DNA of 64,000 nt, from positions 177,548 through 241,547 of the forward strand of contig DAONDY010000001.1 in assembly GCA_035402805.1 (NCBI GenBank), read 5' to 3'. How positions within the stretch are numbered: position 1 is the stretch's first letter; every line of letters starts with the position of its first letter. Of the stretch, positions 13,797 to 52,814 are shown piece after piece. Under the pieces are notes generated by a model, which saw only the letters and a list, made by a program, of their open reading frames with translations, did no database searches and was not told the origin of the DNA. The translations under genes were made by a program, and so were the position numbers. The stretch comes from Candidatus Woesebacteria bacterium. Its GTDB lineage: Bacteria; Patescibacteriota; Microgenomatia; UBA12405.

Positions 13797-13906
13797 CTGC
13801 GTTATTAATAATTAATTATAGGCCATTATATTGCCAAAATGTCTATTTGTCAAGTAAAAACTCTTATAACTTGTTTTTTCTGCCTTTTTTGCTTTATACT
13901 TTACCT

Positions 13907-19101: not shown

Positions 19102-19162
19102 CTTTCAAATATTAACATAATTTATATTTTCCAATCAAACGAATTGATTGTATAATTTAGTA

Positions 19163-32262: not shown

Positions 32263-33756
32263 CTAAAACCACGGTCTCTTAGTTGTTAACATATCAGTTG
32301 TCGGATATTTAGGTAAAAGAAATCTATCAAAAAACGGTAGTTTAATTTTTGACAAAATAGTTGATTGGCTAAATGGGCAAGTTTTATTTTCGCATCTAAT
32401 TTCAAAGGCTGAATATATATATTTAGCATTAAAATAAAACCCCAAAACCACAAACAAAATTAAAATACCCCTTGATATTTTTTTCGCTAAATTATTTTTT
32501 TTCAAAAAATACAGTAAAGATGGAACCAGGACTAGGAAAAAGACAACTCGATAAACATTTGCTGGTGTAGTTGGTCTAAAATCATTAGATAGATAATATC
32601 TAGAAGATAACAGCAATCCAACCGCAAAAGTCATTGTAAAAAAATTAGCTCTCTTATATATCCAACCCAAACCCAAAGCTCCAAATATAGCCAACATAGG
32701 ATAGAAGGGATATCTATACCAGGGTAATAAATCCTGTTCTGATCCAGAAATTATTGACATTATCAACCAATAAAAGAAAAACATGCTTAATAACTTTGTA
32801 TTTTTGCCCATCTTTTTTTGAAATGAAAAAAACAAAGCAAAAAACAATCCAAAAATATACCAGCCGTCAAAAAATGAAAAAATATCAAAAGCTGGTGAAC
32901 TTAAAACATAAGATAGGGCTGTCCAACCGGCAAATCTATTTCCTTGAATTGCCACAATACTTTTAAACAAGTTCCAATCATAACTATAACCATAAAAAAC
33001 ATAAATACCTATTCCCATCGCCACAAAACCAAGTACTATAAAAATATCCTGCCATCTTTTTTTCTTCACAGCAAAATAAATAAAAAGTGGCGCCAAAAAA
33101 TATCCAGTTGGTTTCATTAATCCCAAAAGCATACAGATTATTCCAATAATAAAGGAATAAAACAGCTTTGGTTTTTTTAAATAAGATTTAACCAATAAAA
33201 GTGAACCGATTACTGCCAAGGCAATGATGTTTTCTGGAACTGACAATCTCGAACCAAATACAATAATTGGCGTCATTCCATAGAAACACATGGCCAATAA
33301 ACCGATATTAAAACTATAAAATTTATATCCCACCAAAAAAACCAAAAACATAGTCGCCATCGACGCCAGAACAGAGGGAATTCTTGAATGCGATGTTGGA
33401 ATCAGCTTATTTCTATCATCACCAAAGAGATGGGCCACACCTCCTGACATTAAGGAATATAACGGTGGTTCGTCTAACCAAGGTTTGTATAATTTTGCTG
33501 GTAAATAAACTCCCTTTAAGTCGCCAACAATTCCATCAAACACTAGGTTTTCTTTTGAATAGTCCAATGTCGACCAAGACATGGGCACACCAGTCTCGAT
33601 CAAGTTAATACCCGACCAACTATAAAGTAATTCCTCGGCATGAGCAGAGTCTGGAACCCTGTCGTAATTGTGAAATTTTAATACTGAAAGAAATAAAAAT
33701 AAAATCACAAAAATGAACCATTTTACTTTTGTTTTTTTAAAAAAAGCTAATATCAT
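32263..33756 (-). CDS. Polytopic GT-C-type membrane glycosyltransferase, paralog family D (inverted copy)
   Basis: 497 aa. The N-terminus matches 8349..9776 (see there). It has about 12 TM helices. Confidence 0.6.
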   Translation of the reverse strand: MILAFFKKTKVKWFIFVILFLFLSVLKFHNYDRVPDSAHAEELLYSWSGINLIETGVPMSWSTLDYSKENLVFDGIVGDLKGVYLPAKLYKPWLDEPPLYSLMSGGVAHLFGDDRNKLIPTSHSRIPSVLASMATMFLVFLVGYKFYSFNIGLLAMCFYGMTPIIVFGSRLSVPENIIALAVIGSLLLVKSYLKKPKLFYSFIIGIICMLLGLMKPTGYFLAPLFIYFAVKKKRWQDIFIVLGFVAMGIGIYVFYGYSYDWNLFKSIVAIQGNRFAGWTALSYVLSSPAFDIFSFFDGWYIFGLFFALFFSFQKKMGKNTKLLSMFFFYWLIMSIISGSEQDLLPWYRYPFYPMLAIFGALGLGWIYKRANFFTMTFAVGLLLSSRYYLSNDFRPTTPANVYRVVFFLVLVPSLLYFLKKNNLAKKISRGILILFVVLGFYFNAKYIYSAFEIRCENKTCPFSQSTILSKIKLPFFDRFLLPKYPTTDMLTTKRPWF

Positions 33757-35381
33757 TTCTTTTTATAAAATATTAAAAATATACAACCAATTATAGTTAA
33801 AATCGACAAATAATCTAACACTTTATTTATTATTGTTTCTCTATATTGAACTAATATTTCATGATTACCACTAGGTATAGTAAGTTGAATCTGGCCATAT
33901 GGATCTCCACTTTTTATTGGTAATTTATTTCCATCAATATAGGCTTTCCAACCGGGAAAATTATATTTATTGTAATTTAAAATAATTTCAACATCAGACG
34001 TCGTGTTAAACTTTGCATCCAAACTATTGATTAACACCACATTTTTAACTGCGTTATTAATTGGATATATTCTTGGATAAATTTCTTTTGGTCTAGTAAT
34101 ACTTGTCTTTGGTAATCTAAGATATTCTTCTTGCAGCGTTAAATATTCTTGGCTTGGATTTGGAATTGGTATATAACGATTAATATAATAACTATCATCT
34201 CTGTTTAGATAATCCTTTGGCTTAAAACGACCTATGTTTAAGACCATAGAAACTACAATAATTAAAACCGCAATAACTTTTGAATATTTAAATTTTTTAA
34301 TAAAAATAACCAATAAGGATGAAGCAAAAACTATCATTGTTAAAAATCTCCATGGAAACTGAAAATAAGCAATCAAAGGAATTTTTTCCCAAAGCCAAAA
34401 TGATCGAAAATTCATCATTAATATCGAAGAAAAAATCAAAAATAAACTCCAACCTAATATTAATTTATCTCTTAAGATAATTTTGGAAAAATTAAAAATA
34501 GCAAAAATTATAATTGCAATAATAATTATTAAGTTTATTTCTCCGATAAAAAAAGACATTTCATCATATGGCCCAGGAACTGAAGCACCGTAACCCCAAA
34601 AGGGAGTTATTAATTGTTTAATAGTAGGAAAATGATCAAAAAAATTAAAAACGGTCTCATATTTCATTAATTTACTATCTAATAATGCTGGCAACCAAAA
34701 ATAGATACTTCCTAACAATCCATTAAAAAATAATAAAAACATATTTTTTAAATTTCTTCTCAAAACAAAAATTCCAAATAAAAAAGCAAATGGAATAAAC
34801 ATATAGGAAACTATATTGTGGGTTAAAATTAATCCAGCCACAGACAATGACCCAGCACAAATCCATTTAACACTCTCTTTAGTGTTCTTCGATTCTGATA
34901 AATTTATTAAAAATAGGATAATTAATGGTGAAAAAATAAAAGCCAAAGATTCTCCTAAAGCACCTCTACTATAAATATCTGTTGAACGATATGGAGTATA
35001 GGTATAAAGTACTGCTGCTGCCATTCCTATAAACTTCCCCGATAATTTTTTTGCTAAAAAATACATTGTCAATGCCGATGCAAATAAACTAAAAATAAAG
35101 ACAGCTTTAATACTGTAAGTAAAACTTAATCCAACTAAATGGAAAATTTCTCCTAAATAATAAGGTAACGGAAAAATGAAATTAAATAGGGGATATCCAA
35201 ACCCAAAACTCAAATCAGACACATATCTTGGTGGTATTTGCCCTTCTTTTATTGACTGATCAATCTGTTGTAACCAAGCAATATGCATATCGTCAGATGC
35301 TCCAAAAAACCCTGGTTTAAACAAAGACAAAGTTGCTGGTATTACTAATAAAATTAGTATCAATAATTCCTTAATTTTCAT
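33753..35381 (-). CDS. Large polytopic membrane protein, paralog family B
   Basis: 542 aa, MKIKELLILILLVIPATLSLFKPG...QIPPRYVSDLSFGFGYPLFNF. It overlaps its neighbours by 4 nt and 11 nt. Confidence 0.6.
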   Translation of the reverse strand: MKIKELLILILLVIPATLSLFKPGFFGASDDMHIAWLQQIDQSIKEGQIPPRYVSDLSFGFGYPLFNFIFPLPYYLGEIFHLVGLSFTYSIKAVFIFSLFASALTMYFLAKKLSGKFIGMAAAVLYTYTPYRSTDIYSRGALGESLAFIFSPLIILFLINLSESKNTKESVKWICAGSLSVAGLILTHNIVSYMFIPFAFLFGIFVLRRNLKNMFLLFFNGLLGSIYFWLPALLDSKLMKYETVFNFFDHFPTIKQLITPFWGYGASVPGPYDEMSFFIGEINLIIIIAIIIFAIFNFSKIILRDKLILGWSLFLIFSSILMMNFRSFWLWEKIPLIAYFQFPWRFLTMIVFASSLLVIFIKKFKYSKVIAVLIIVVSMVLNIGRFKPKDYLNRDDSYYINRYIPIPNPSQEYLTLQEEYLRLPKTSITRPKEIYPRIYPINNAVKNVVLINSLDAKFNTTSDVEIILNYNKYNFPGWKAYIDGNKLPIKSGDPYGQIQLTIPSGNHEILVQYRETIINKVLDYLSILTIIGCIFLIFYKKK

Positions 35382-37053
35382 AAAAATTTTTCTTTTTAAT
35401 AACCATAAATATTGGCAAACTTATTAAGGTAATTAAGCTTATTAAATCCCCAATTTTTCTTGGTGTTGTAGATTTTAGTTTAACAGTAATTTTATGTGTA
35501 CCTTTATTTAAATTAAAACTAATTTGGCCAAAACAATAATCCTGATTACTGCAATCATTATGATTAAAAACTATTGGTAAATTATTATCCGTCACTTCCA
35601 TCCCTGGAAAGTCAAATATCGGCAATCTGATCTCAGCCACCTCACTGTCAACATCTATTTCTCCTGTTTGATAGTTACTTCCTTTTTTATAATTTTTAAC
35701 TTCCGCTTTTCCCTTTGTAATTTCTGGTATTTCTGGTGCTTTATAGTTTGGCGGTAAGACAGAACTTTTTGGTAAATAATCAAAAATACTTGCCGTTTGT
35801 TGTTTTAAAAATTCTTGGTCATTTAATAGTTGCTGGTCATTAATATTCATCCATTTTTGTGGTTTGAAAAAACTTCCATATAAAAGGAATAATGATAATC
35901 CAACTATTATTACAATAATAGTTTGTCGCTTACCATTAAAAAAATTTATTGCATAACCAGACAGTAAAGATAAAAGAAAAGTACTAATAACCAAAAATCT
36001 CCAAGGAAATTGGAACATTGCCATAAAACTAAATTTATCCCAAATAAAAGATGATCTTTGATGAATTAAAAAAATAACAAACAAGCTAAGTCCAGCCAAA
36101 ACAAAAACGATTAAACTACTTTTTTTAGATTTTTTATAATTTTTTATTGCCAAAAACAAAGCCGTTAACCCTAACACCCATTGTATTTGTCCTACCGATA
36201 AAGATAAATCATCACCCGCCCCTAAATAAGATGATCCGTATCCAAAACGATTCGATATAAATAATTGATATAAATTTACAAAATGTTGACGATAATCAAA
36301 ATAACCGCCAATCATACTTTCTAGATGGATATAACCTCTTTCAAATATTAAAGGCACAATAAAAAAAGAAGCTAAACCAATTCCTATTAAAAAAGCCCAA
36401 AAGAAATCGACCAATTTTTTTATTTTTCTCTCTTGTATTAATAAAACAACTATCCATACTCCCAGTATTGGGAAAAAGGCTAACGACATTAAATTATGTG
36501 TCACTAATAAACTGAAAACGGCTAAACCTAACCATAAAATATTATTTTTACCTATACCTTTAATAATTCGATAGGAGAATAAAAACAACCAAGGAAAAAC
36601 TGCCATCGATAAAAATTCTCCCAAAGATCCTCTTACATAAACTTGCACTGCTCTAACTGGTGCGTATATATATAATAGTGATCCAATAAAAGCTACTTTT
36701 TGATTAGAAAATAAACTAGACAATAACAAAAACATTCCTATCGCTGATACTAAAAAACCACCTATAAATAATATTTTTACTGAATCTATATATTGAAAAC
36801 CAATATTATGAAAAAGAGTTCCTAAATAATAAGGGCCAGGAGAATAATATAAAAACAAAGGATATCCAAAGCCATAACCCATATCTGGCACCCAACGACA
36901 TGGTATTTGTCTATCATCAAAACATTTTTGCATTTCATAAATTCGAAAATATTGCATGTTGTCCTGAATATTGTGAATTCCTGGTCGCAAAAGAGTTACA
37001 AAAGCCGGAACTGTAAACAAAATCAAAGCCAATAACCAAATATAGCGTTTCAT
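35371..37053 (-). CDS. Large polytopic membrane protein, paralog family B
   Basis: The start at 37053 (MKRYIWLLALILFTVPAFVTLLRPG) was chosen because it aligns with the paralog N-termini. It leaves an 80-nt divergent intergenic region. The track's 37113 start is a TTG. Confidence 0.6.
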   Translation of the reverse strand: MKRYIWLLALILFTVPAFVTLLRPGIHNIQDNMQYFRIYEMQKCFDDRQIPCRWVPDMGYGFGYPLFLYYSPGPYYLGTLFHNIGFQYIDSVKILFIGGFLVSAIGMFLLLSSLFSNQKVAFIGSLLYIYAPVRAVQVYVRGSLGEFLSMAVFPWLFLFSYRIIKGIGKNNILWLGLAVFSLLVTHNLMSLAFFPILGVWIVVLLIQERKIKKLVDFFWAFLIGIGLASFFIVPLIFERGYIHLESMIGGYFDYRQHFVNLYQLFISNRFGYGSSYLGAGDDLSLSVGQIQWVLGLTALFLAIKNYKKSKKSSLIVFVLAGLSLFVIFLIHQRSSFIWDKFSFMAMFQFPWRFLVISTFLLSLLSGYAINFFNGKRQTIIVIIVGLSLFLLYGSFFKPQKWMNINDQQLLNDQEFLKQQTASIFDYLPKSSVLPPNYKAPEIPEITKGKAEVKNYKKGSNYQTGEIDVDSEVAEIRLPIFDFPGMEVTDNNLPIVFNHNDCSNQDYCFGQISFNLNKGTHKITVKLKSTTPRKIGDLISLITLISLPIFMVIKKKNFYEN

Positions 37054-37132
37054 CTTAACTATTATAGCCCAATTAATTTCCAATTTAACTCTATTTTTCA
37101 TATAATCATTCAAGTGTTAACATTATACAAAC

Positions 37133-38794
37133 ATGACTAAACTTTATTCAATTATTTTTGGAATTATTTTAGTCATCGGATTCCTAACCCGTTTTCTTTT
37201 TCTAGATAAATTTCCAGTCAGTCTAAATTGGGATGAAATCAGTCACGGATATAACGCTTATAGTCTTGTAAAAACTGGTCGAGATCAATGGTCAAAATCA
37301 CTACCTATTTTTAATTTTAGGGCTTACGGTGACTATCCAACCACTCTCAACATGTATCTTTCTGCCCCTCTTATTTATTTTTTTGGCTTAAATGAATGGA
37401 CTACTAGGATTATTTCTGCACTTTGTGGTTTTGGTTTAGTTATTGTTTCTTATTTTTTGGGTAAAGAATTATTTAAAAATCAAAAAGGTAAATATTTATT
37501 AATGTTATTAGTAGCCGTTTCACCCTGGACATTTTTCACCTCAAGAGCAGTTTTTCAATCAACAGTGGCTCAATTTTTTCTTTCTCTGGGAATTTTGTTT
37601 TTAATTAAAGCTACTAAAAAAATAAATTTTCTATTGCCGGGAATATTTTTTACTTCAATTTCTACTTATGCCTATCATAACACTAAAATAATTGTTCCAA
37701 TTTTATTTTTAATCTACATTATCATCTTTTTTAAAGAAATAAAACTAAACTTTTCTAAAAAAATAAAAACATTTTTGATTGGCTTTTTATTAATTTCAGT
37801 TTTAATAATTCCTCAGATAATTAATGTTTTTAATAAAGATGCTCAAGCTCGCAGTCGTTGGGTTTTTGCTATTAATCCAGTCACTGTTAATCAAATTGAA
37901 ATTAATCGCAATAATTACAAAGGTAATCCCTTAATTGCCAAATTAAAATATAACCGAGTCACTGTCTTTTCGGCTATTGTCGCTAAAAATTATCTTGGAT
38001 TTGTAAACCCGAAAATGTTGTTTTTTGATAGCACCCAAAATTTCCAATTTAACATTCCTAAAACCGGCGTTCTTTATTCTGTTTGTCTGCCTTTCTTTTA
38101 TATCGGTCTAGTAGTTTTATTAATAAATTTTTTCAAAAAAGACAAGTTGTCTATTTTCCTTATTTTTTGGTTTTTAATTGGTTTAATCCCTGCCGTTATC
38201 ACTATCGGTGATTTCCCAATCATTAGGGCTATGACTATTTTGCCATTACCTCAAATTTTTATAGTTTATGGGTTTTTAAGAACAATAAATTTATTCAAAA
38301 ATCAAAAAGTAAAATCCCTTTTTACTATTTTATTTTTATTAATTTTATTTATTCAAACCTCCTTTTATTTGAAAAATTACTTTAATGATTATTCAAAAAA
38401 ATATTCTTCTTCTTGGCAATACGGTTATAAACAAGTTGTTGAGTATATAAAAAATAATTACCAAGATTACGATCAAATCATTTTCACTAAAAAATATGGA
38501 GAAGCCCACGAATTTGTTTTGTTTTATTGGCCATGGGATCCAAAATCTTATCAAAATGACCCTAATTTAAATTGGGATTTTCACTCTGATTGGTATTGGG
38601 TTAATGCTTTTGATAAATTTAAATTTATCAACGATTGGGAAATTCAAAAAGAAACTCAAAAAATAGACAAAAAAACTCTTTTAATAACTTCTCCAAATAA
38701 TTATAATAAAGACAATACTACATTAATTAAAACCATCTATTTTTTAAATCAAACACCAGCTTTTGACATTTTAACCATCAATGATCAAAAATAA
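37133..38794 (+). CDS. GT-C glycosyltransferase family 39-like (PMT/ArnT) membrane protein, paralog family A, copy 1
   Basis: First-loop DE motif NWDEISHGYNAYSLVKTGRDQW...YGDYPTTLNMYL, about 12 TM helices and a C-terminal soluble domain. Confidence 0.65.
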   Translation: MTKLYSIIFGIILVIGFLTRFLFLDKFPVSLNWDEISHGYNAYSLVKTGRDQWSKSLPIFNFRAYGDYPTTLNMYLSAPLIYFFGLNEWTTRIISALCGFGLVIVSYFLGKELFKNQKGKYLLMLLVAVSPWTFFTSRAVFQSTVAQFFLSLGILFLIKATKKINFLLPGIFFTSISTYAYHNTKIIVPILFLIYIIIFFKEIKLNFSKKIKTFLIGFLLISVLIIPQIINVFNKDAQARSRWVFAINPVTVNQIEINRNNYKGNPLIAKLKYNRVTVFSAIVAKNYLGFVNPKMLFFDSTQNFQFNIPKTGVLYSVCLPFFYIGLVVLLINFFKKDKLSIFLIFWFLIGLIPAVITIGDFPIIRAMTILPLPQIFIVYGFLRTINLFKNQKVKSLFTILFLLILFIQTSFYLKNYFNDYSKKYSSSWQYGYKQVVEYIKNNYQDYDQIIFTKKYGEAHEFVLFYWPWDPKSYQNDPNLNWDFHSDWYWVNAFDKFKFINDWEIQKETQKIDKKTLLITSPNNYNKDNTTLIKTIYFLNQTPAFDILTINDQK

Positions 38795-40421
38795 CAAATT
38801 ATTTTTAATAATTATTTTCCTTATTTCCTTCCTTATTAGGTTTTATAAAGTAGGGGAATATCCGACATTACTCTGGGATGAAGCCGCTATTGGTTATAAT
38901 GCCTTTTCACTAGTCGAAACAGGTAAAGACGAATACGGTGAAACTCTACCAATTATTTTTAAGTCTTTTGGAGACTATAAGCCGGGTTTTTATATTTATT
39001 TAGCCGCTCCATTTATTAAAATATTTGGACTAAACGCTACTGCCACCAGGTTACCTTCCGTTATTTTAGGTTCTTTTTTGCCAATTTTAATTTATTTTTT
39101 AATTAAGGAAATAAATCAAAAAGCTCATAAAACAGCCGTTATTGCCGCTATTATCACTGTTTTTAATCCATATTCAATTCATTTTTCTCGTGGCGCTTGG
39201 GAAAGTAACGTTTTGACTTTTGAATTAGTTTTAGCTTCCTTTCTTTTCTTTAAATATATTAATAAAAAATTAAATAAATATTTACTACTTTCAGCCATTG
39301 TTTTTGGCCTGACTCTTTTTACCTATCAAGCCGGTAAAATGATTAGCCTCCTTTTAATTACTATTTTATTTTTAACAAACTTAAATATTGTTAATTTTAA
39401 AAATATTAAAAATATATTATTAAACTTTATTCTTCCTCTTTTTCTTTTTTCTCTGCCAATAATTTATGGTTTATTATTTTCCAATAACGCTAATCGACTA
39501 AAAGTTGTTAGTCTTTTTTCTTATCCTCGAACAACTCAAGAATCAGAGGCTATTAAAAGTGAAAGTAATCAGCTTGATTATGATATTTTTCATAATCAAT
39601 TAGTTTTTTTTGGACGTAATTTTTTACTTCGTTATTTCAATCATTTTTCACCGCGATTTTTAGCTTTTGAGGGTGATTGGCAAAGTCCACGTCACGGAGC
39701 TCCTTATATTGGAGTCATCCTTTATCCTAGCCTTATTTTTTTAATTATCGGTGTCTTTTTTGCTTTAAGTCGGCCCAAAATTGATAAATTAAATATTTTC
39801 TTTTTCCTCTGGCTTATTGTTGCCCCATTACCGTCAGCTTTAACTCGAGACATTGTTCAATCATTAAGATCGATGTCCTTTTCTATTCCTTTAATATATT
39901 TTATTTCCGTTGGTATTTATATTGTTTTATTAAAATATAAAAATATATTTGTTTATTCTTTAATTATTGGTTCTTATTTGATTTCTTTCTTTTACTACGT
40001 CGATCTTTATTTAAATCATATGGTCAAAAAAAACCCAGACGAATTTCTTTATGGATATCAACAATCAATGGATTATTTAATTAAAAATCAAAGTAAATAT
40101 AAACAAATAACTGTCAGTGATTATTATGGTCAAGCTTATATTTTTTATCTTTTTTATTCGAAATATCCACCTCAAAAGTATCAACAGCAAGCCAAATTAA
40201 TAGAAAATTTGTCTGGTGATACTGGCAAAGTTGAACAAATTGATAATATAAAATTTACTACCCCAGATTACAGTGTAATAAAAAATCAACCATCTTCTCT
40301 CGCCATTTTCAATTATAATGAAATTTATCGTCAGTTAATTGATAAATCGGATTATTTTAAAGAATTTATACCTTTAAGTCTTATAAATAATATTTCCACT
40401 TTCTATGCCTACCAAAATTAA
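38781..40421 (+). CDS. GT39-like (PMT/ArnT) membrane glycosyltransferase, family A copy 2
   Basis: WDEAAIGYNAFSLVETGKDEYG...FGDYKPGFYIYL. It overlaps copy 1 by 14 nt. Confidence 0.65.
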   Translation: MIKNNKLFLIIIFLISFLIRFYKVGEYPTLLWDEAAIGYNAFSLVETGKDEYGETLPIIFKSFGDYKPGFYIYLAAPFIKIFGLNATATRLPSVILGSFLPILIYFLIKEINQKAHKTAVIAAIITVFNPYSIHFSRGAWESNVLTFELVLASFLFFKYINKKLNKYLLLSAIVFGLTLFTYQAGKMISLLLITILFLTNLNIVNFKNIKNILLNFILPLFLFSLPIIYGLLFSNNANRLKVVSLFSYPRTTQESEAIKSESNQLDYDIFHNQLVFFGRNFLLRYFNHFSPRFLAFEGDWQSPRHGAPYIGVILYPSLIFLIIGVFFALSRPKIDKLNIFFFLWLIVAPLPSALTRDIVQSLRSMSFSIPLIYFISVGIYIVLLKYKNIFVYSLIIGSYLISFFYYVDLYLNHMVKKNPDEFLYGYQQSMDYLIKNQSKYKQITVSDYYGQAYIFYLFYSKYPPQKYQQQAKLIENLSGDTGKVEQIDNIKFTTPDYSVIKNQPSSLAIFNYNEIYRQLIDKSDYFKEFIPLSLINNISTFYAYQN

Positions 40422-42027
40422 TAAACTACCGCTAATAATAATTCTCCTCGTTGCCTTTTTAGTTAGATTTATCAACCTTAACAATGCTCCTGCTTTAAAT
40501 CCTGACGAAGCCGCTCTCGGTTACAATGCTTATTCCCTAATTAAAACTGGAAAAGACGAACACGGTATTTCTTGGCCACTCCATTTTAAATCTTTTGGCG
40601 ATTTTAAACCTGGTGGTTATGTTTATTTAGCCATCCCATTCGTAAAATTTTTCGGTCTCACACCATTGGCCACCAGAATGCCGAATTTGATTCTTTCCTT
40701 ATTCACTATCCTTTTTTTATATAAATTAATTTTACTTTTATCAAAATCTAATGGTTTAGCCCTCTTAAGTGCCGCCGTATTATCTTTATCACCTTGGCAT
40801 ATTCATTTTAGTCGTGGTGCTTGGGAATCCTCAGCCGCCCTTTCTTTTGTTGTCATCGGCACTTATTTCTTTTTTAAATCAATCGAAGAAAAGTTTTTAT
40901 TAAATTTTAGTTTTTTTGTTGTTCTCTATGTGTTATCCCTCTATATTTATCACTCATCTCGTCTAGTTGCTCCGCTTTTAGCCCTCACTTTAGTTATTTT
41001 ATATTTTAAAAATCTAATTCAAAAAATTCCCAAAATATTTATCCCCATAGCTCTAGGTGTCGTCTTAGCACTACCGGTAGCTTTTTCATTCTTAAATAAT
41101 GGAGGAACAGCTCGTATTGGTGGAGTTGGGTTAACTGCCGACCAAGGGCCGCTTTGGCGAGCCAATGAATTGATAAATCACCACGGTAACACTAAGTTGA
41201 TTAACCGGATAACGCACAACAAAAGAATTCTTTATTTGATTTCTTGGGGTCAAAAATACACCTCACATTTTGACTTAAACTTTTTAAGTATTAATGGCGA
41301 TGAAGTGCCTCGTTCCAAAGTCCCAGAAATGGGTCAAATTCATCTAATAGAACTTCCTTTTCTAATCCTTGGTCTTGTTTTCCTTTTTAAATCCAAAATT
41401 TATAACTTAAGATCTAAAATTTTTATTATTGCCTTTTTATTAATCGCTCCAATTGCCTCATCTTTAACTTTTCAAGCCCCTTCGGCTCTCAGATCTCTTT
41501 TTATGGTTATTCCATTTTCCATTCTAATTGCCTTAGGCATTTTTTCTTTTTTTAATCTCCTTACTAAATCAAAATTTAAAAAAATAATTTTAACAATATT
41601 TATTATTATCTATAGTTATTTTATTGCTTATTATCTTGACTCTTATTTTATCCATTATTTCAAAAGATATCCTTTTGCCTGGCAATATGGTTTTGATCAG
41701 TTAGTTCCTTATCTGGAACAACAAAAAGCTAATTATGATCAAGTTTATGTCACCAATAAATATGATCAGCCATACATTCTTTTTCTTTTTTATTCAAAGT
41801 ATTCACCAGTTAAAATTCAGTCTGAAATAAAACTCACTCAGCCGGATAATTTTGGTTTTTCTACTGTTTTAAATTTTGACAAATATAATTTTCAAAAAAT
41901 TGATTGGGATAAAATCCCCAAAAATTCACTAGTAGTAGCCAGTGATGAAATTGTTCCCATTGAACCTATTAAAATTATTAATTTCCAAAATGGTCAACCA
42001 GGGTTTAAAATCTACTCAAAGCTATGA
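40405..42027 (+). CDS. GT39-like (PMT/ArnT) membrane glycosyltransferase, family A copy 3
   Basis: NPDEAALGYNAYSLIKTGKDEHG...FGDFKPGGYVYL. It overlaps copy 2 by 17 nt. Confidence 0.65.
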   Translation: MPTKINKLPLIIILLVAFLVRFINLNNAPALNPDEAALGYNAYSLIKTGKDEHGISWPLHFKSFGDFKPGGYVYLAIPFVKFFGLTPLATRMPNLILSLFTILFLYKLILLLSKSNGLALLSAAVLSLSPWHIHFSRGAWESSAALSFVVIGTYFFFKSIEEKFLLNFSFFVVLYVLSLYIYHSSRLVAPLLALTLVILYFKNLIQKIPKIFIPIALGVVLALPVAFSFLNNGGTARIGGVGLTADQGPLWRANELINHHGNTKLINRITHNKRILYLISWGQKYTSHFDLNFLSINGDEVPRSKVPEMGQIHLIELPFLILGLVFLFKSKIYNLRSKIFIIAFLLIAPIASSLTFQAPSALRSLFMVIPFSILIALGIFSFFNLLTKSKFKKIILTIFIIIYSYFIAYYLDSYFIHYFKRYPFAWQYGFDQLVPYLEQQKANYDQVYVTNKYDQPYILFLFYSKYSPVKIQSEIKLTQPDNFGFSTVLNFDKYNFQKIDWDKIPKNSLVVASDEIVPIEPIKIINFQNGQPGFKIYSKL

Positions 42028-42851
42028 AAAATCAAAAAACAACCATATCTGTTGCCCTCGCTACTTATAACGAAGAAAATAATATCGAGAGATGTTTGAA
42101 AGCTGTTTCTAGTTGGGTTAATGAAATTGTTATTGCTGATGGAAGTTCTCAAGATAAAACTGTTGAAATTGCTTCAAAGTTCAAAAATGTAAAAATTATC
42201 AAAACTACCAATAAAGAAGTTTTTCATATTAATAAAAACATGGCCATTGATGCCTGTAAAAGTGATTGGATACTTCAACTAGATGCTGATGAAGTTGTTT
42301 CTTTGGAACTTAAAAATGAAATCGAGGGTATTTTATCTAAAAACATTAAAGATATTAAAGAAAATGGTTTTTGGATCAATCGAAAAAATTATTTTTTAGG
42401 GACATTTCTCAAAAAAGGTGGACAATACCCCGACGCTACTCCCAGATTGTTTAAAAACGGCAAAGGCCATCTTCCTTGTCTTGATGTCCACGAACAACCC
42501 AAAATAGAAGGGGAATCGGGTCATTTAAAAAACGACTTAGAGCATTATGCCGATGTTTCTTTTTCTCGATATCTTCTCAGACATAATCGATATACCACTT
42601 CCTACGCCAGAGAATTCCAGGATAAAAAAATAAAAATTAACTTTATAAACTTTATAAACTTTTATCTTTGTAAACCTACCTGGTGGTTTTTAATGGCTTT
42701 TTTCCGACATAAAGGCTTCTATGACGGTTTTCCTGGTTTTGTCTTTGCTTTTTATTCTGCCCTAAGATTTCCAATTGCTTATACCAAATATTGGGAGCTT
42801 CAAAAAACCAATCGTAAAATTGATTTATCAAAGGATTGGGATAAAAAATAA
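42024..42851 (+). CDS. GT2 glycosyltransferase (WaaE/KdtX-like)
   Basis: ISVALATYNEENNIERCLKAV...IVIADGSSQDKT...LQLDADE. It contains the in-frame 9-bp tandem repeat aactttata x3 at 42637-42663. Confidence 0.7.
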   Translation: MKNQKTTISVALATYNEENNIERCLKAVSSWVNEIVIADGSSQDKTVEIASKFKNVKIIKTTNKEVFHINKNMAIDACKSDWILQLDADEVVSLELKNEIEGILSKNIKDIKENGFWINRKNYFLGTFLKKGGQYPDATPRLFKNGKGHLPCLDVHEQPKIEGESGHLKNDLEHYADVSFSRYLLRHNRYTTSYAREFQDKKIKINFINFINFYLCKPTWWFLMAFFRHKGFYDGFPGFVFAFYSALRFPIAYTKYWELQKTNRKIDLSKDWDKK

Positions 42852-43942
42852 TGGCCAAAAAAATAAAAATTGCTATCGATATCTCTCCCACTCAAGACGG
42901 TAATGCTCTTCGGGGTGTTGGTTACTACACTTCAAATTTAGTTTCTGCCCTCCAAAAAGAAATAAAAACCAATCAACTATATAAAAATTTTGAAATTAAT
43001 TTAATTAAAGATTGGAAATTAGAAAACAAAACTTATGATTTAATTCATTATCCTTTTTTTGATCCATTTAAACTTAGCCTCCCAAAAAAGACCAATATAC
43101 CCACTATTGTTACAGTTCATGACTTAATTCCACGTCAATTCAAATCCCATTTTCCAGTTGGAATCAAAGGTGAAATAAAATGGTTAATTCAAAAACAACG
43201 CCTTCTAAAAGTCGATAAAATTTTAACGGTTTCTAATTATTCTAAAAATATTATTAATCAAATCACTAAATATAAATTAAACAATATTTTTGTTACTCAT
43301 TTGGCCGCCGATTCAACTTTTAAAGTTATTTCTGATCCTAAAAAATTAGCCGAAATTCAAAAAAAATATAAATTACCCAAAAATTTTGTCCTATTTGTTG
43401 GTGATATTAATTGGAATAAAAATATTCCAACTTTAGTCAAAGCTTGTCTAAAATTAAAATATCCCTTAGTTATAGTTGGTTCATCTGCTACTAAAAAAGA
43501 CGTTCCTAATCACCCTTGGACTCAAGATTTACTTTGGCTCCAAACTAAAGCTCTAAAGCTCCAAAGCCCTAAAAAACTAATCTTAACTGGATTTGTTCCT
43601 GATGAGGATCTTCCTTATGTTTATAATTTAGCCACCGTTTATTGTCAGCCCTCTTTTGGCGAAGGATTTGGGTTGCCTCTTATTCAAGCCATGAAATCTG
43701 GTTGCCCAGTTATCTACAGCCAAGATTCTTGTTTAGATGAAATTATGGCTTCTAATGGGCTTAAATTCAATCCACACTCTCAAAAAGATTTACAAAAAAA
43801 ATTATCCCAACTTTGGAATAATAAAGATCTTCAACAAAAATATAAAAAATTAGGATTAAGTCATTCTAAAAATTTCAATTGGAAATATACTACCGTTCAA
43901 ACTCTTGCCCTTTATAATTTAATTTTAAAGGATGAAAAATAA
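42851..43942 (+). CDS. GT4 (GT-B fold) glycosyltransferase
   Basis: C-terminal motif GEGFGLPLIQAMKSGCPVI. Confidence 0.7.
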   Translation: MAKKIKIAIDISPTQDGNALRGVGYYTSNLVSALQKEIKTNQLYKNFEINLIKDWKLENKTYDLIHYPFFDPFKLSLPKKTNIPTIVTVHDLIPRQFKSHFPVGIKGEIKWLIQKQRLLKVDKILTVSNYSKNIINQITKYKLNNIFVTHLAADSTFKVISDPKKLAEIQKKYKLPKNFVLFVGDINWNKNIPTLVKACLKLKYPLVIVGSSATKKDVPNHPWTQDLLWLQTKALKLQSPKKLILTGFVPDEDLPYVYNLATVYCQPSFGEGFGLPLIQAMKSGCPVIYSQDSCLDEIMASNGLKFNPHSQKDLQKKLSQLWNNKDLQQKYKKLGLSHSKNFNWKYTTVQTLALYNLILKDEK

Positions 43943-44735
43943 AAATCACTTTTTATCGGTAATTATCCCCATATATAAACAAGAAAAAACCATCAAACAA
44001 GACCTTTTAAACATCAGCCAAACCCTTAAACAAATCCGTTACGATTATGAAATTATTGCAGTTGTCGATGGTACTTCTATTGATAATTCTTTTGAAACCA
44101 TCAAAAAACTCAAAATTAGTAAATTAAAAGTTTTTGGTTATAAGAATAATCACGGTAAAGGTTATGCCGTCAGATATGGCATGGCTAAAACAAAAGGGGA
44201 TTATATTGCTTTTATAGATTCGGGTATGGAAATAGACCCAAACGGTATTTCATTAGTTCTAGAGCATATGGAGTGGTATAACGCCGATATTATTGTTGCT
44301 TCAAAAAGACATCCAGCCTCAATGGTCAATTATCCTTGGGATCGAAAAATTATCAGTTTTGGTGCCCATTTAATCTCTAAATTTTTATTAGGAATTAATG
44401 TTCACGATACTCAAGCTGGCTTAAAAATTTTTAAACGTCCAGTTTTGATTAAAGTACTTCCCCGTTTATTGGTTAAAAATTATGCTTTTGATCTAGAAAT
44501 TTTAGCAGTTGCCAATCGATTAGGTTTTACCAAAATATACGAAGCTCCAATTAAATTAAACTACGACTTCACCAGTTTGACTCATGCCACTGGTCTTAAA
44601 ATTATTTATAGTTGTTTTATGGAAGCCATGTCTGTTTTTTATCGCTTAAGAATATTAAATTATTATGATGATAAAAATAAAAGAAAATGGATTTATGATC
44701 CAGAATTAGATATGCGAATTAACACTGGAGAATAA
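43932..44735 (+). CDS. GT2 polyprenol-phosphate sugar synthase (DPM1/GtrB-like)
   Basis: LSVIIPIYKQEKTI...IIAVVDGTSIDNS...AFIDSGMEIDP. Confidence 0.7.
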   Translation: MKNKNHFLSVIIPIYKQEKTIKQDLLNISQTLKQIRYDYEIIAVVDGTSIDNSFETIKKLKISKLKVFGYKNNHGKGYAVRYGMAKTKGDYIAFIDSGMEIDPNGISLVLEHMEWYNADIIVASKRHPASMVNYPWDRKIISFGAHLISKFLLGINVHDTQAGLKIFKRPVLIKVLPRLLVKNYAFDLEILAVANRLGFTKIYEAPIKLNYDFTSLTHATGLKIIYSCFMEAMSVFYRLRILNYYDDKNKRKWIYDPELDMRINTGE

Positions 44736-44737
44736 TT

Positions 44738-45718
44738 ATGAAATTGCCAAAATTTTCAGTTATTATTCCAGTCCGTAAAACAAATGATTATCTTAAAGAG
44801 ACCTTATTAAAACTCAAAAAACAATCATATAAAAATTTTGAAGTTCTAGTTATAACTGATAAATTATCTGGTTCAGCCAATCCTTCCGAAAAAAGAAATT
44901 TGGGAGCCAAAAAAGCTAAAGGTGAATATTTAGCCTTTTTAGATGATGATTCTTATCCTCACCAAAATTATTTTAAAAATGCACTTAAATTAATAGAAAA
45001 AAATCCAGAATTCGCTAGTTTTTGTGGGCCGTGTCTTACTCCACCAAAAGATAACTCGTTTCAAAAAGCCTCAGGACTTTTTTGGTCTAGCTGGTTAGGT
45101 AGTGGTGGCGCTGGCGTCTATCGAAATAGTGTCCAAAAAGCTCGTTTTGTTGATGATTATCCCACCGTCAATCTCATCGTTAAAAAAAGTGATTTTAATT
45201 TAGTTAATGGTTTTGATACTTCCTTTTGGCCTGGTGAAGATACTGTTCTTTGCCTTAATCTAGTCAAAAATCTAAACAAAAAAATCCTTTATCATCCTTC
45301 TTTAATTGTTTATCATCATCGTCGTTCTATTCTTATTCCTCATCTTCAACAAATCACTCGTTATGCCATCCAACGAGGATTTTTTGTTAAAAAATTTCCT
45401 CAAACTAGCCTTAAAATTGGTTATTTTATTCCAACTCTGTTTTTCTTATATTCTTTTATATTTTTAGTAAATAAAATATTTTTTAATAATTTTTTACTAA
45501 ATGTTCCATTATATTTATATACATCAATATTATGTTTTACCTTTTTGATTTTTCTCTTTAAAAGAAATAACCTTAAAATTTCCTTTTTAGCTGCCATTAC
45601 CATACCTATAACTCACCTTTACTACGGTATACTATTTCTACATGGCCTATTTAAAAAGGAAGTCAAATTCAAAGCCCATGACTTCAATAAAAAAACCGGC
45701 AGATACATTGGCGGTTAA
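44738..45718 (+). CDS. GT2 glycosyltransferase with C-terminal TM helices
   Basis: FSVIIPVRKTNDYLKETLLKLKKQSY...VLVITD...AFLDDDS, with about 3 TM helices at the C-terminus. Confidence 0.7.
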   Translation: MKLPKFSVIIPVRKTNDYLKETLLKLKKQSYKNFEVLVITDKLSGSANPSEKRNLGAKKAKGEYLAFLDDDSYPHQNYFKNALKLIEKNPEFASFCGPCLTPPKDNSFQKASGLFWSSWLGSGGAGVYRNSVQKARFVDDYPTVNLIVKKSDFNLVNGFDTSFWPGEDTVLCLNLVKNLNKKILYHPSLIVYHHRRSILIPHLQQITRYAIQRGFFVKKFPQTSLKIGYFIPTLFFLYSFIFLVNKIFFNNFLLNVPLYLYTSILCFTFLIFLFKRNNLKISFLAAITIPITHLYYGILFLHGLFKKEVKFKAHDFNKKTGRYIGG

Positions 45719-47159
45719 TTCTATTTCTATTTCTTACCCCCCGTTAAAATCAGATAAAGGCACCCCATTTTTATCTCAAAATCGCCAATTTCAATGGACA
45801 AATACTGGCAATGTAATTTATCCTGTTATTCCTGCTTATGCTGCTACTTTATTAAAAAATCAAGGATTTAAAGTTTTTTGGGACGATGCCATCGCTGAAA
45901 ATTTAAGTTATCAAGAATGGTTTAAACGTCTTTTTAAAAGAAAACCAGATTTAGTTGTTATTGAGACAAAAACTCCAGTAATCAAACAACATTGGGAAAT
46001 AATCAATGAATTAAAAAAAGAAAGTTTAAAAATCAAAAATTGGAAATTAAAAATTGTCTTAATAGGAGATCATGTTACTGCCCTACCGAAAGAATCAATT
46101 AAAAAATCAAAAGTTGATTTTGTCTTAGTTGGAGGTGATTATGATTTTTTGCTAAGCGAATTAGTCGAATTGATTAATAAAAACCAAGCCCCAAAAACCA
46201 AAATTTTCAAATCCAATAAAAATCATAATTTAAATTCCTTGCCAATAATAGACCGTCAGCTAACTCAATGGCAACTTTATGCCTACAATAACACCAATTA
46301 TAAATACAAACCCGGAGCCTATATCATGTCAGGACGTGATTGTTGGTGGGGAAAATGCACTTTTTGTTCCTGGACTACTCTTTTTCCCGGTAAATGTTTC
46401 CGTCAATTTTCAGTTGAACACACTCTTAAAGAAATTGAAAACTTAGTTTACAATTTTGGGGTTAAAGAAATTTTTGATGACTCAGGTACTCTTCCTATTG
46501 GCTCCTGGTTAAAGGAATTATGCCAAGCCTTAATAAGTCGCGGTCTGAATAAAAAAGTCAAAATCGGCTGCAACATGCGATTTGGTGCCTTAACCTTATC
46601 TGAATATCAACTAATGCATCGAGCTGGTTTTCGTTTTGTATTATATGGTCTCGAATCAGCTAATCAAAAAACTCTAAATTTTATAAACAAAAATGAAAAA
46701 ACCAGCTACGCTTTAAAAACTCTTAGAATGGCTAAACTTGCCAAACTAGAACCACATATTACTGTCATAATCGGATACCCAAACGAAACCAAATCAGACG
46801 CTATTAAAACCCTTAACCTGGCTAAAAAAATTTTTAAAAGTAATTTGGCTGACAGTCTTCAAGCCACCATTTTAATTCCTTATCCTGGCACTCCACTTTT
46901 TAAATATTGTCAAGAAAAAAATTTACTTTTAACCACTAATTGGGATGATTTTGATATGCGTCAACCAATTATAAAATCACCAATTTCACCATCAGAACAA
47001 ATTGAATTAGTTCAAAATCTTTTTAAAGGCATTATTAACCCTGAATTTATTTTTCAAAAAATAATTTCCATAAGATCAATAAACGATATTAAACACTTAT
47101 TTAATTATGCTTTTAAGTATTTTAAAAAACTGAAGGATTTTACAAAAAATGATAATTAG
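45678..47159 (+). CDS. B12-binding-domain radical SAM enzyme (class B-like), with an atypical Cx4Cx2C cluster motif
   Basis: N-terminal Rossmann-like B12-binding region (VLIGDHVTALPKE). The cysteine motif SGRDCWWGKCTFCSW has Cx4Cx2C spacing, which I confirmed in the DNA. The ATG at 45678 was chosen; the track start at 45642 overlaps the upstream gene by 77 nt. Confidence 0.6.
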   Translation: MTSIKKPADTLAVNSISISYPPLKSDKGTPFLSQNRQFQWTNTGNVIYPVIPAYAATLLKNQGFKVFWDDAIAENLSYQEWFKRLFKRKPDLVVIETKTPVIKQHWEIINELKKESLKIKNWKLKIVLIGDHVTALPKESIKKSKVDFVLVGGDYDFLLSELVELINKNQAPKTKIFKSNKNHNLNSLPIIDRQLTQWQLYAYNNTNYKYKPGAYIMSGRDCWWGKCTFCSWTTLFPGKCFRQFSVEHTLKEIENLVYNFGVKEIFDDSGTLPIGSWLKELCQALISRGLNKKVKIGCNMRFGALTLSEYQLMHRAGFRFVLYGLESANQKTLNFINKNEKTSYALKTLRMAKLAKLEPHITVIIGYPNETKSDAIKTLNLAKKIFKSNLADSLQATILIPYPGTPLFKYCQEKNLLLTTNWDDFDMRQPIIKSPISPSEQIELVQNLFKGIINPEFIFQKIISIRSINDIKHLFNYAFKYFKKLKDFTKNDN

Positions 47160-50295: not shown

Positions 50296-51417
50296 ATGAA
50301 AAATTTTTCCAAAAAGGGAATTTTAATTCTCACCCCATTTTTTTACCCAAACATTGGTGGAGTTGAAACACACCTGACAGACTTAGTTAACGGACTTAAT
50401 GATTTAAAATACCAAGTTTATGTTCACACTTATTCTCCTCTAACTACCGCCGGAGCAACTTGGAAGCCAAAAGAAACAATCCAACATATCCATATATATA
50501 GATATCATTGGTTTGGTAAAAATCTTTTCCATAAAGTCGAAAAATATCCCTTTTTAGATTTTCTCTATTTAACACCGTACCTATTTTTACGTACTTTTTT
50601 TTGGATGTTAGCTAATCATAAAAAAATTACCACTATAAATTCTCACGGATTTAACGGTGCCGTTGCTGGAAATATGTTAGCTTTTATATTCAACAAAAAA
50701 CATATTACCAGCACTCATGCTCTTTATGATAATAGTCCAAACTCCTTAACTGCCAAATTAACCAGCTTCGTCTTAAATAAAACCGATATGGTTCTAGCTC
50801 AATCTCTTCATTCCAAAAATCAACTTATAAAATGGGGTGTATCTAGTCAAAAAATCTCTTTATATCGCTATTGGATTGACCCAAAAAATTTTAACAACCA
50901 AAAATCAAATATTTCCCAGCATAAATTCAAAGTTCTCTTTGTTTCTCGTCTTATTATTAAAAAGGGGACTAGAATAATTGTAAAAATAGCCAAAAAATTA
51001 CCAAATGTAGAATTTACAATTATCGGATCAGGCCCAGAATCAAAATATATTTCTCAACAAAAATTATCTAATATTAATTTTATTGGAAAGGTAGATAATA
51101 ATAAATTATTAGATTATTACTCGACTGCTAACGTTTTTATTCAACCAGCTCTTTATCAAGAAGGCTTCACTAGAACCATCATGGAGGCCGTTGCTTCTGG
51201 AGTTCCAGTTATTGCTTCCAATATCGGTACTATTCCAGAAATAGTTGACAACTCTGTTTCTATTTTAGTAAAACCAACTGTTGCCAATTTTAAATCGGCC
51301 ATTCTCAAATTATCAAAAGATAAAAAAATACTTAATCAGATGAAAAAAAATTGCGCTCTCTACACAAAAAAATATTTCAGTCCAGCCAATATTAAATTAA
51401 TTACTCAACACTATTAA
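50296..51417 (+). CDS. GT4 (GT-B fold) glycosyltransferase
   Basis: C-terminal EGFTRTIMEAVASGVPVIASNIG motif. Confidence 0.7.
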   Translation: MKNFSKKGILILTPFFYPNIGGVETHLTDLVNGLNDLKYQVYVHTYSPLTTAGATWKPKETIQHIHIYRYHWFGKNLFHKVEKYPFLDFLYLTPYLFLRTFFWMLANHKKITTINSHGFNGAVAGNMLAFIFNKKHITSTHALYDNSPNSLTAKLTSFVLNKTDMVLAQSLHSKNQLIKWGVSSQKISLYRYWIDPKNFNNQKSNISQHKFKVLFVSRLIIKKGTRIIVKIAKKLPNVEFTIIGSGPESKYISQQKLSNINFIGKVDNNKLLDYYSTANVFIQPALYQEGFTRTIMEAVASGVPVIASNIGTIPEIVDNSVSILVKPTVANFKSAILKLSKDKKILNQMKKNCALYTKKYFSPANIKLITQHY

Positions 51418-52814
51418 TGAAAACCGTTTTATTACTAAACCCACCACTGTATTTTGATAATGGCCAACCAAAATCTCTTGATGTTTCTTTCCCTCCGTTA
51501 GGATTACTTTATCTCGCCTCTTATATTAATAAAAACTCTTCCATATTTAAAGCTAAAATAATCGATATCGGCCAAGAAAAAAAACCACTAGATGATTTAA
51601 TAAAAGCCATCAAAAAGACTAAACCTTATGTTATTGGTATCACTTCAATGACGCCTCAACTTCAAGGCGCCACAGAATTAGCTAAACAGCTTAAAAAACA
51701 CCTGAAAGAAATCCCCATCTTTCTTGGAGGCCCTCACGTTAGTGCCGATCCCGATTTTATTAATCGTCATAGTTCTCTTTTTGACTATGCCATTACCGGC
51801 GAAGGAGAAATAACCTTTTTAGAATCACTTAATAAAATCTATAAAAACAATAAATTACCCCTAACCCAAAAAAGTACCCCACCATTAAAATTAGATGATC
51901 TTCCTTATCCAGATAAAACCCTAATTAAAAGGAAAAATTATAAAAAAACCGAGTCAATGATGTTTTCTCGTGGTTGTCCATTTCACTGCTACTATTGCAG
52001 TCGACCCTCTATCAGCCATCTAGTCCGATATCGTTCCTCCGAAAATCTTATTGCCGAAATTAAAAGCTGTTATCCATATTGTCATGGTGATATTAGTTTT
52101 CAAGACGACACTTTTACCATGAATTCCAAAAACGTTATCGATTTTTGTAAAAAAATAATTAAGCAAAAATTAAAAATATCTTGGGATTGCAACACTCGAA
52201 TTGATTTGGTTGATAAAAAAATTCTTACCTTGATGAAAAAAGCTGGTTGTCGTCAGATAAATTTTGGTATCGAATCTGGTAATGAAAGAGTTAGAAAAGA
52301 AATTATTCATAAAGGTAATTTCACTAATAAAGATATTAAAAAGGTATTTGATTATTGTAAAAATCTAAAAATTAAAATTGCTTGTTACTTTATGATCGGT
52401 CATCCCACCGAAACCAAAAAAGAGTTAAATGACACTAAAAAAATGATTTTAAATTCTAAAATAGATATTTTAGGCCTTTCTATTCCCACTCCTTTTCCCG
52501 GATCAGCTTTATATGATATTTCTCTTAAAGAGGGGATAATTTCACCAAAAATCATCGACAATTTTTCTCAAAAAAAACTTGGTGTTGGCTATTCTGGTAT
52601 CTATCCAGTCTATATTCCGAAACAACTTGGTCGTGAATATTTATACGGCTTTCTAAAACAAGTTAATCGTAAATTTTACTTAAATGCTAAAACCATTTTT
52701 AATCGTCTTTTAAAAGACTTAATTTCCCCAAAGCAATTAAAAAACGATTTCAAAGATTTTATTAGTCTAATTATTAATGGAGTTTCCAGTCGAAAACCTT
52801 ATATTAAAAAATAA
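51417..52814 (+). CDS. B12-binding-domain radical SAM enzyme
   Basis: N-terminal B12-binding fold (GITSMTPQ...FLGGPHVS). The radical SAM cluster motif is FSRGCPFHCYYCSRP (Cx3Cx2C). Confidence 0.7.
   Translation: MKTVLLLNPPLYFDNGQPKSLDVSFPPLGLLYLASYINKNSSIFKAKIIDIGQEKKPLDDLIKAIKKTKPYVIGITSMTPQLQGATELAKQLKKHLKEIPIFLGGPHVSADPDFINRHSSLFDYAITGEGEITFLESLNKIYKNNKLPLTQKSTPPLKLDDLPYPDKTLIKRKNYKKTESMMFSRGCPFHCYYCSRPSISHLVRYRSSENLIAEIKSCYPYCHGDISFQDDTFTMNSKNVIDFCKKIIKQKLKISWDCNTRIDLVDKKILTLMKKAGCRQINFGIESGNERVRKEIIHKGNFTNKDIKKVFDYCKNLKIKIACYFMIGHPTETKKELNDTKKMILNSKIDILGLSIPTPFPGSALYDISLKEGIISPKIIDNFSQKKLGVGYSGIYPVYIPKQLGREYLYGFLKQVNRKFYLNAKTIFNRLLKDLISPKQLKNDFKDFISLIINGVSSRKPYIKK

Follow-up and report, generated by a model that had tools for sequence, protein, structure and literature searches.

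The 64,000-nt window analyzed here, a stretch of contig DAONDY010000001.1 from a Candidatus Woesebacteria genome of the Microgenomates, has a guanine plus cytosine content of about 30% and carries three consecutive homologous genes for membrane glycosyltransferases, which we designate C1, C2, and C3. Their open reading frames (ORFs) encode proteins of 553, 546, and 540 amino acids (aa):

37133-38794, forward strand: C1, a 553-aa membrane glycosyltransferase of predicted PMT/ArnT-like GT-C fold, assigned from its ORF, Pfam match, and orthogroup clade
38781-40421, forward strand: C2, a 546-aa membrane glycosyltransferase of predicted GT-C fold
40405-42027, forward strand: C3, a 540-aa membrane glycosyltransferase of predicted GT-C fold, assigned from its Pfam PMT match, clade, and conserved Asp-Glu (DE) motif

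The genes are tightly packed. C2 starts 14 nt before the stop of C1 and C3 starts 17 nt before the stop of C2, matching the overlaps of 14-17 nt in the original prediction, which was made from the sequence of this window and described a local amplification of GT39-like genes (GT, glycosyltransferase family in CAZy) at 37133, 38781, and 40405. The stop of C3 overlaps the start of a GT2 gene at 42024 by 4 nt (ATGA).

C1, C2, and C3 are genuine full-length paralogues. BLASTP gave 31% identity for C1/C2 (E 9e-49), 36% for C2/C3 (E 7e-83), and 30% for C1/C3 (E 2e-61), slightly lower than the 35-45% previously estimated by eye, with C1 the most divergent member. The alignments cover nearly the entire proteins and take in the soluble C-terminal domain (about 125 aa), and so the N-terminal homology noted earlier is real but runs the full length of the proteins. 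Most of the motifs read from the sequence are also present, namely DEISHGYNAYSL, DEAAIGYNAFSL, DEAALGYNAYSL, and FSRGAWES in C2 and C3, except that C2 reads ETGKDE where a motif beginning KTG had been given and C1 reads YGDYP instead of FGD. Generic transmembrane composition, which had been named as the observation that would undo the claim, does not account for the similarity: when one partner was shuffled inside 20-residue blocks, a control that preserves the pattern of membrane helices and loops, scores reached at most 27 bits, compared with 165-256 bits for the real pairs. About 10 other GT-C-like membrane proteins of the window matched C1-C3 with a best E of 2e-4.

The superfamily to which these proteins belong was identified from Pfam and from a structural model. 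PF02366 (PMT) is the best-scoring Pfam family for all three, with 24.5 bits for C1, 47.5 for C2, and 26.8 for C3 against a gathering cut-off of 22.7, and C1 (27.9 bits) and C2 also exceed the cut-off of 26.1 for PF13231 (PMT_2). These were the only families reported in the Pfam scan at E <=0.01, in which neither PMT_4TMC (PF16192) nor a MIR domain was found. NCBIfam returned sub-threshold matches only, to the LA_3751/LA_3752 family and to Agl23; C2 matched TIGR03663, “flippase activity-associated protein Agl23,” at E 8.6e-13 and 48 bits, with a cut-off of 126. An AlphaFold model of C2 computed from 41 sequences (predicted local distance difference test 85.1, predicted template modeling score 0.87) confirms, at the level of predicted structure, the GT-C fold of the triplet, C1 and C3 being unambiguous homologues of C2. 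The only meaningful Foldseek neighbors of the model are GT-C fold glycosyltransferases, including STT3, PglB, ArnT, ALG12, and Pmt4, with the Emb proteins also among the matches. The triplet proteins have about 11-13 membrane helices followed by a small extracytoplasmic C-terminal domain, and the C2 model contains no inserted beta-trefoil (MIR-like) domain.

A finer assignment is not reached by these comparisons. The structural neighbors are spread evenly across ALG12, AglB, Pmt4, ArnT, and STT3, with no family singled out. Profiles of 3, 41, and 49 sequences found no solved structure at E <0.01, the only marginal hits being ArnT and STT3; the 49-sequence profile matched ArnT 5ezm at a marginal E of 0.016 over residues 69-227, placing a KPG of the family on the KPP of ArnT. 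The DE motif falls opposite a DE of Chaetomium Pmt4, although the aligned segment has no significance of its own, and no sequence match to any solved PMT was obtained at E <1. Because the searches of solved structures were empty or marginal, the family placement rests on Pfam and fold. Of the earlier “GT39-like” label, the broader PMT/ArnT-type GT-C part is retained, whereas GT39 in particular is not established, and “PMT/ArnT-like GT-C enzymes” is the safe label on the available sequence and model comparisons. The proteins are already annotated in generic terms in public metagenome-assembled genomes (MAGs): a Candidatus Woesebacteria MAG protein identical to C2 is named “phospholipid carrier-dependent glycosyltransferase,” and C2 orthologues at 60-89% identity are mostly labeled Candidatus Shapirobacteria, some bearing the NCBI name “glycosyltransferase family 39 protein.” The family as a whole comprises 4,842 clusters at 50% identity (E <=1e-30).

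To place the triplet in time, we compared 80 loci holding a C1 relative, sampled at one genome per species and carrying the names Shapirobacteria, Woesebacteria, Amesbacteria, Microgenomates group, and Patescibacteria group in their titles, together with two orthologue loci from contig look-ups. In each locus ORFs were called, a profile built from C1-C3 of the window was used to find family members of at least 480 aa, and each was assigned to its best-matching window copy, with margins of +35 to +690 bits that include Amesbacteria and Woesebacteria orthologues at only 36-43% identity. All 69 non-redundant loci that hold the three copies have them on one strand in the order C1, C2, C3. A copy is missing in 12 loci. 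In most of these (L010, L012, L013, L018, L020, L025, L028, L037, L044, L059, and L071) the sequence stops at the last family gene found or no more than about 1 kb away from it; in L047 a C2 orthologue is present and, at 455 aa, falls under the length filter. Loci of Shapirobacteria, Woesebacteria, and Amesbacteria contain orthologues of each copy with identities of 36-89%, a divergence that excludes the related loci being mis-assembled copies of a single genome. In a neighbor-joining tree built from 169 family members of 30 loci, bootstrap support was 100/100 for each of three separate clades, those of the C1, C2, and C3 orthologues. No replicate united the three clades to the exclusion of other paralogues (0/100), some of which fall between them, and C2 and C3 grouped with three extra paralogues (L057:6647, L060:6605, and L080:6640) in 33% of replicates.

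Given the fixed order and the separate clades, the duplications must therefore predate the divergence of these lineages, and the array is an inherited, conserved module that was not born in this genome. The synteny comparison that the original prediction had suggested thus speaks against the local amplification it proposed. The adjacency, shared strand, similar length, and clear homology of the genes might suggest a recent tandem amplification, specific to the lineage and with copies still diverging, but this is contradicted by same-order orthologues in three lineages, by the fully supported orthogroups, and by saturated synonymous sites between the paralogues; synteny and tree together rule it out, and we give it almost no weight.

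Selection on the individual copies was estimated from orthologues. The ratio of nonsynonymous to synonymous substitution rates (dN/dS) between paralogues, also suggested earlier, was calculated and is silent on the duplication because synonymous sites are saturated (proportion of synonymous differences 0.64-0.69, dN 0.63-0.73). Orthologue pairs, used instead, gave Nei-Gojobori dN/dS values of 0.07-0.14 per copy (0.09-0.14 for C1), which are rough given dS of about 0.7-1.9. Each copy is under purifying selection. Of the 35 columns common to every orthogroup, 18 fall within residues 20-90, the first extracytoplasmic loop. The DE motif occupies residues 33-34 of C2, directly after the helix at 3-21; D33 and E34 are invariant in 49 sequences spanning the three orthogroups, and the motif is at least 95% conserved within each orthogroup (74-84 sequences; n=84 for C1). 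Most of the loop-1 signature is likewise conserved across the three orthogroups, comprising R20, P28, D33, E34, G38, Y39, N40, S43, T47, D50, P57, F60, D65, and Y73. The FSRGAWE motif common to C2 and C3 is lacking in C1, which still keeps S136 and R137.

The triplet is embedded in a larger module. In the related loci the order is a YfhO-like GT-C gene (family B), C1, C2, C3, a GT2 gene, a GT4 gene, and a second GT2 gene resembling dolichol-phosphate mannose synthase (DPMS), seven genes in total. The corresponding neighbors in the window are:

33753-35381, reverse strand: second family B paralogue, 542 aa (Pfam PTPS_related, 23.5 bits), overlapping the next gene
35371-37113, reverse strand: family B, PTPS_related/YfhO-like GT-C-like membrane protein, divergently oriented from C1
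42024-42851, forward strand: GT2, 275 aa (Pfam Glycos_transf_2), the fourth gene, downstream of the triplet
42851-43942, forward strand: GT4, 363 aa (Pfam Glycos_transf_1 and Glyco_transf_4)
43932-44735, forward strand: GT2, 267 aa, candidate polyprenyl-phosphate sugar synthase, which would make a lipid-linked donor

The product of 35371-37113 scores 24.1 bits against PTPS_related, below the cut-off of 26.4, and shares 31% identity (E 2e-69) with that of 33753-35381. In most relatives, 41 loci in all, family B shares the strand of C1 and immediately precedes it, with an overlap of 3-36 nt; the pair is inverted in this window, L003, and L035. In two cases family B and C1 are fused in frame (L010:8348-11644, 1,098 aa; P0125, 1,060 aa), a Rosetta-stone hint that the two proteins may function jointly. 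Downstream, a homologue of the 42024-42851 GT2 is present in 65 of the 80 loci, where its start lies at a median of 3 nt ahead of the end of C3. Its best solved relatives are GmaR (E 1e-11 against the PDB) and SunS, and it matches the NCBIfam SunS model at E 3e-15, below the cut-off, a likeness that may point to a peptide or protein as the substrate. The GT4 has a homologue at the equivalent position in 55 loci. The second GT2 has one in 46 loci with a median identity of 67%, the highest of the module; its best solved relative is the Pyrococcus DPMS 5mlz (E 6e-10), with GtrB and ArnC next in line, and it has two paralogues in the window, at 13754-14635 and 19148-19927.

Among known enzymes, the closest to the triplet are GT-C transferases of the ArnT (CAZy GT83) and PMT (CAZy GT39) type. 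In common with both, the triplet proteins match Pfam PMT above threshold and carry Asp-Glu directly after the first membrane helix; like ArnT, they are about 540-550 aa long, with a small soluble C-terminal domain and a KPG that aligns, in a marginal profile match, with KPP. Unlike either, they have no significant sequence match to the solved members, the best E being 0.016, and by structure ArnT and PMT are no closer than ALG12, AglB, and STT3. The triplet also differs from PMT in that PMT_4TMC and MIR were not detected, and from ArnT in its context, as no arn-type genes adjoin it and the neighbors are GT2, GT4, radical S-adenosylmethionine (SAM), and other GT-C genes. The set of paralogous enzymes has a further parallel in RgtA-RgtD of Rhizobium leguminosarum (Brown et al. 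2012), PMT_2-type GT-C paralogues that are said to use one lipid-phosphate donor made by RgtE and to transfer the same sugar to different acceptor positions, the pattern proposed here for the triplet. In that Gram-negative bacterium the acceptor is reportedly the lipopolysaccharide core or lipid A, which sets the system apart from the triplet.

In gene architecture, the closest known counterpart by analogy is the mycobacterial emb operon, in which three homologous GT-C genes (EmbC, EmbA, and EmbB; GT53) encode proteins that are 40-46% identical and act on distinct acceptors, arabinogalactan or lipoarabinomannan (PMC7341804). The solved Emb chains are much longer, with about 1,050-1,090 residues and large periplasmic domains, compared with 540-553 aa in the triplet, and no sequence relationship between them is detectable; what they share is architecture and fold class, not family. 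The GT2 plus GT-C decoration systems of Streptococcus and Listeria are also close in architecture. These three-component systems combine a GT2 synthase of C55-phosphate-sugar, a GtcA/GtrA flippase, and a GT-C enzyme (YfhO/GtlB), as in SccN-SccM and SccP-SccQ of S. mutans (PMC7389260, PMC11754754), and several GT-C enzymes of one wall-polymer locus place sugars at different positions (PMC11754754, PMC7389260). The module resembles them in the co-location of a synthase-like GT2 with GT-C genes and in the YfhO-like GT-C that adjoins the triplet. It differs in having no detected GtrA/GtcA-like flippase, a candidate synthase without predicted membrane helices, and three to seven GT-C paralogues per module where the three-component systems have one per synthase. 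We found no publication on the conserved triplet in the literature on Microgenomates or the candidate phyla radiation with GT-C, mannosyltransferase, or glycosyltransferase.

We consider that C1, C2, and C3 are probably three non-redundant, anciently diverged PMT/ArnT-type GT-C enzymes that would use lipid-phosphate-sugar donors and decorate an extracytoplasmic envelope glycan or protein. The 43932-44735 GT2 would attach a sugar to polyprenyl phosphate on the cytoplasmic side, the lipid-linked sugar would be flipped across the membrane, and at the outer face each of the three enzymes would pass it to a different position or acceptor, most likely on an envelope glycopolymer and less likely on a surface protein. 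Use of a lipid-phosphate donor is suggested by the alignment of KPG with the KPP of ArnT and by the DPMS-like GT2 in the module, and pairs of an undecaprenyl-phosphate-sugar synthase and a GT-C enzyme are known to decorate Gram-positive wall polymers (PMC7389260, PMC11754754). The setting of the triplet agrees with this reading, as the wider region also encodes a Wzx-like flippase, an LCP ligase, sugar epimerases/dehydratases, and many GT2 and GT4 enzymes. The overlapping stop and start codons, which recur in the related loci (C1/C2 in 55 of 75, C2/C3 in 53 of 69), may couple translation of the three genes and keep their products in fixed proportion. Non-redundancy would explain why three copies are universally retained. 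Neofunctionalization toward different acceptors, part of the original prediction, is plausible in that all three copies have kept the catalytic motif under purifying selection.

Several observations weigh against this interpretation. Only 7 columns are fixed within orthogroups and differ between them, five of which set C1 apart, and so the sequence signature of divergent specificity is thin. The candidate synthase has no predicted membrane helix, and its NCBIfam matches to PgfS, PpgS, and ArnC are weak and far below the cut-offs. Pfam scans of window ORFs of at least 90 aa found no GtrA/GtcA-type flippase (PF04138). The overlap lengths follow from longest-ORF start calls and are possibly overestimated, and as candidate promoters and terminators were fewer than in shuffled sequence, the operon structure is read from gene packing.

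A reading that partly coincides with the one above, and to which we assign roughly one chance in four, is that C1-C3, possibly with the YfhO-like GT-C, form one obligate hetero-oligomeric transferase. Yeast Pmt1-Pmt2 and mycobacterial EmbA-EmbB offer precedents (PMC7341804), and strict co-occurrence in fixed order, frequent stop/start overlaps, a similar selective constraint on all three copies, and the natural family B-C1 fusions would all fit such a complex. However, no fusion among C1, C2, and C3 themselves was seen in the 150 best representatives or the 80 loci, and inserted genes of 0.3-5 kb split C1 from C2 in about 10 loci. It also seems rather unlikely that the triplet encodes GT39-type protein O-glycosyltransferases, isoenzymes for different substrates that would modify Ser/Thr of surface or secreted proteins such as pilins or an S-layer. 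That PMT is the best-scoring Pfam family, that some orthologues carry the family 39 name, that the DE motif falls on that of Pmt4 in an alignment non-significant alone, and that the adjacent GT2 is closest to the protein/peptide glycosyltransferases GmaR and SunS would agree with such a role. Set against these points are the failure to detect PMT_4TMC and MIR at E <=0.01 and to match a solved PMT by sequence at E <1, and a surrounding 47-kb locus that looks like polysaccharide assembly, with Wzx, LCP, epimerases, and many GT2 and GT4 genes.

That at least one copy is non-catalytic, serving as a scaffold or in association with flipping as proposed for archaeal Agl23, appears improbable. The sub-threshold TIGR03663 match of C2, the loss of FSRGAWE in C1, and the lack of a dedicated GtrA-type flippase in the window might be taken as signs of such a role, but every orthogroup retains both the DE motif and the loop-1 signature as a whole at 95% conservation or more, C1 keeps S136 and R137, and constraint is similar on all three copies. 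A bolder extension, which we regard as doubtful, is that the YfhO-like protein and C1-C3 constitute one hetero-oligomeric extracytoplasmic glycan-assembly machine that is lineage-defining for Microgenomates and builds an undescribed envelope polymer; if so, the fixed order, translational coupling, and B-C1 fusions would be the genomic footprint of that machine.

The spacing and number of family genes vary among the related loci. The 0.3-5 kb of inserted sequence between C1 and C2 is found, for example, in L019, L043, L059, L063, L064, and L067. A gap of more than 700 nt between C2 and C3 occurs in one locus only, and because separation is far rarer here than between C1 and C2, the C2-C3 pair is the more tightly linked. 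Upstream of C1 the copy number of the family varies: L001:5073-13256 holds five tandem PMT-type genes, and six to eight family members lie within 15 kb in L057, L060, L062, and L080. Many loci with Microgenomates-type synteny are titled “uncultured Gammaproteobacteria bacterium” (L005, L007, L009, L016, and others), and the titles “Candidatus Methanoperedens sp.” and “Clostridia bacterium” each occur once, among L024 and L080; such names probably stem from placeholder titles, incorrect bin labels, or contaminating contigs.

Within the window, the triplet is one of several local sets of GT-C paralogues. At least 14 GT-C-like genes, in several paralogue groups, lie between 8349 and 42027 (about 34 kb), and the wider glycan locus extends over roughly 47 kb (about 13.7-60.5 kb) with about nine GT2 genes, four GT4 genes, two epimerase/dehydratase paralogues, and a Wzx-like flippase. 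The ORFs 25833-27521 (562 aa) and 21472-22710 (412 aa) adjoin the flippase gene; no Pfam or NCBIfam family matches either of them significantly, except that the latter has a weak GT87 match, and they could be a polymerase or ligase of the locus. The number of radical SAM genes is unusual for a polysaccharide cluster; the one cobalamin (B12)-binding paralogue scanned, 45642-47159, has HpnJ as its best NCBIfam match, far below the cut-off. Upstream of the glycan locus, two Peptidase_C39-like proteins (3570-4328 and 11908-13128) flank the FtsE/FtsX, GT-C-like, and LCP genes. The features concerned are:

6833-7882: LCP-family gene
8349-9776: GT-C-like gene
10380-11902: FtsE/FtsX pair
Genes at 14517, 16096, and 17605 (reverse strand): one group of GT-C-like paralogues
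Genes at 8349, 32263 (reverse strand), and 19827: a second group
Genes at 22703, 33753 (reverse strand), and 35371 (reverse strand): a third group, beside C1-C3 as a further group and the gene at 21472 (weak GT87)
45642-47159, 51417-52814, 54961-56421, 56427-57989, and 57986-59422: five B12-binding radical SAM paralogues, 25-36% identical
52821-53933: SPASM radical SAM enzyme

Overall, the conserved triplet leaves knowledge of GT-C enzymes as such unchanged, since tandem paralogues with divided labor are already known from the emb operon and from streptococcal wall-polysaccharide loci, and it would not surprise a specialist. Its practical value lies in offering three or four clean orthogroups, a seven-gene module, and a confident structural model for heterologous expression. 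Microgenomates are uncultured and have small genomes, and this one still spends about 47 kb on glycan synthesis. The persistence of a four-gene GT-C block from Shapirobacteria to Amesbacteria suggests that an envelope glycopolymer or glycoprotein is important for their lifestyle, and the triplet may therefore serve as an entry point to the envelope chemistry of the Microgenomates.

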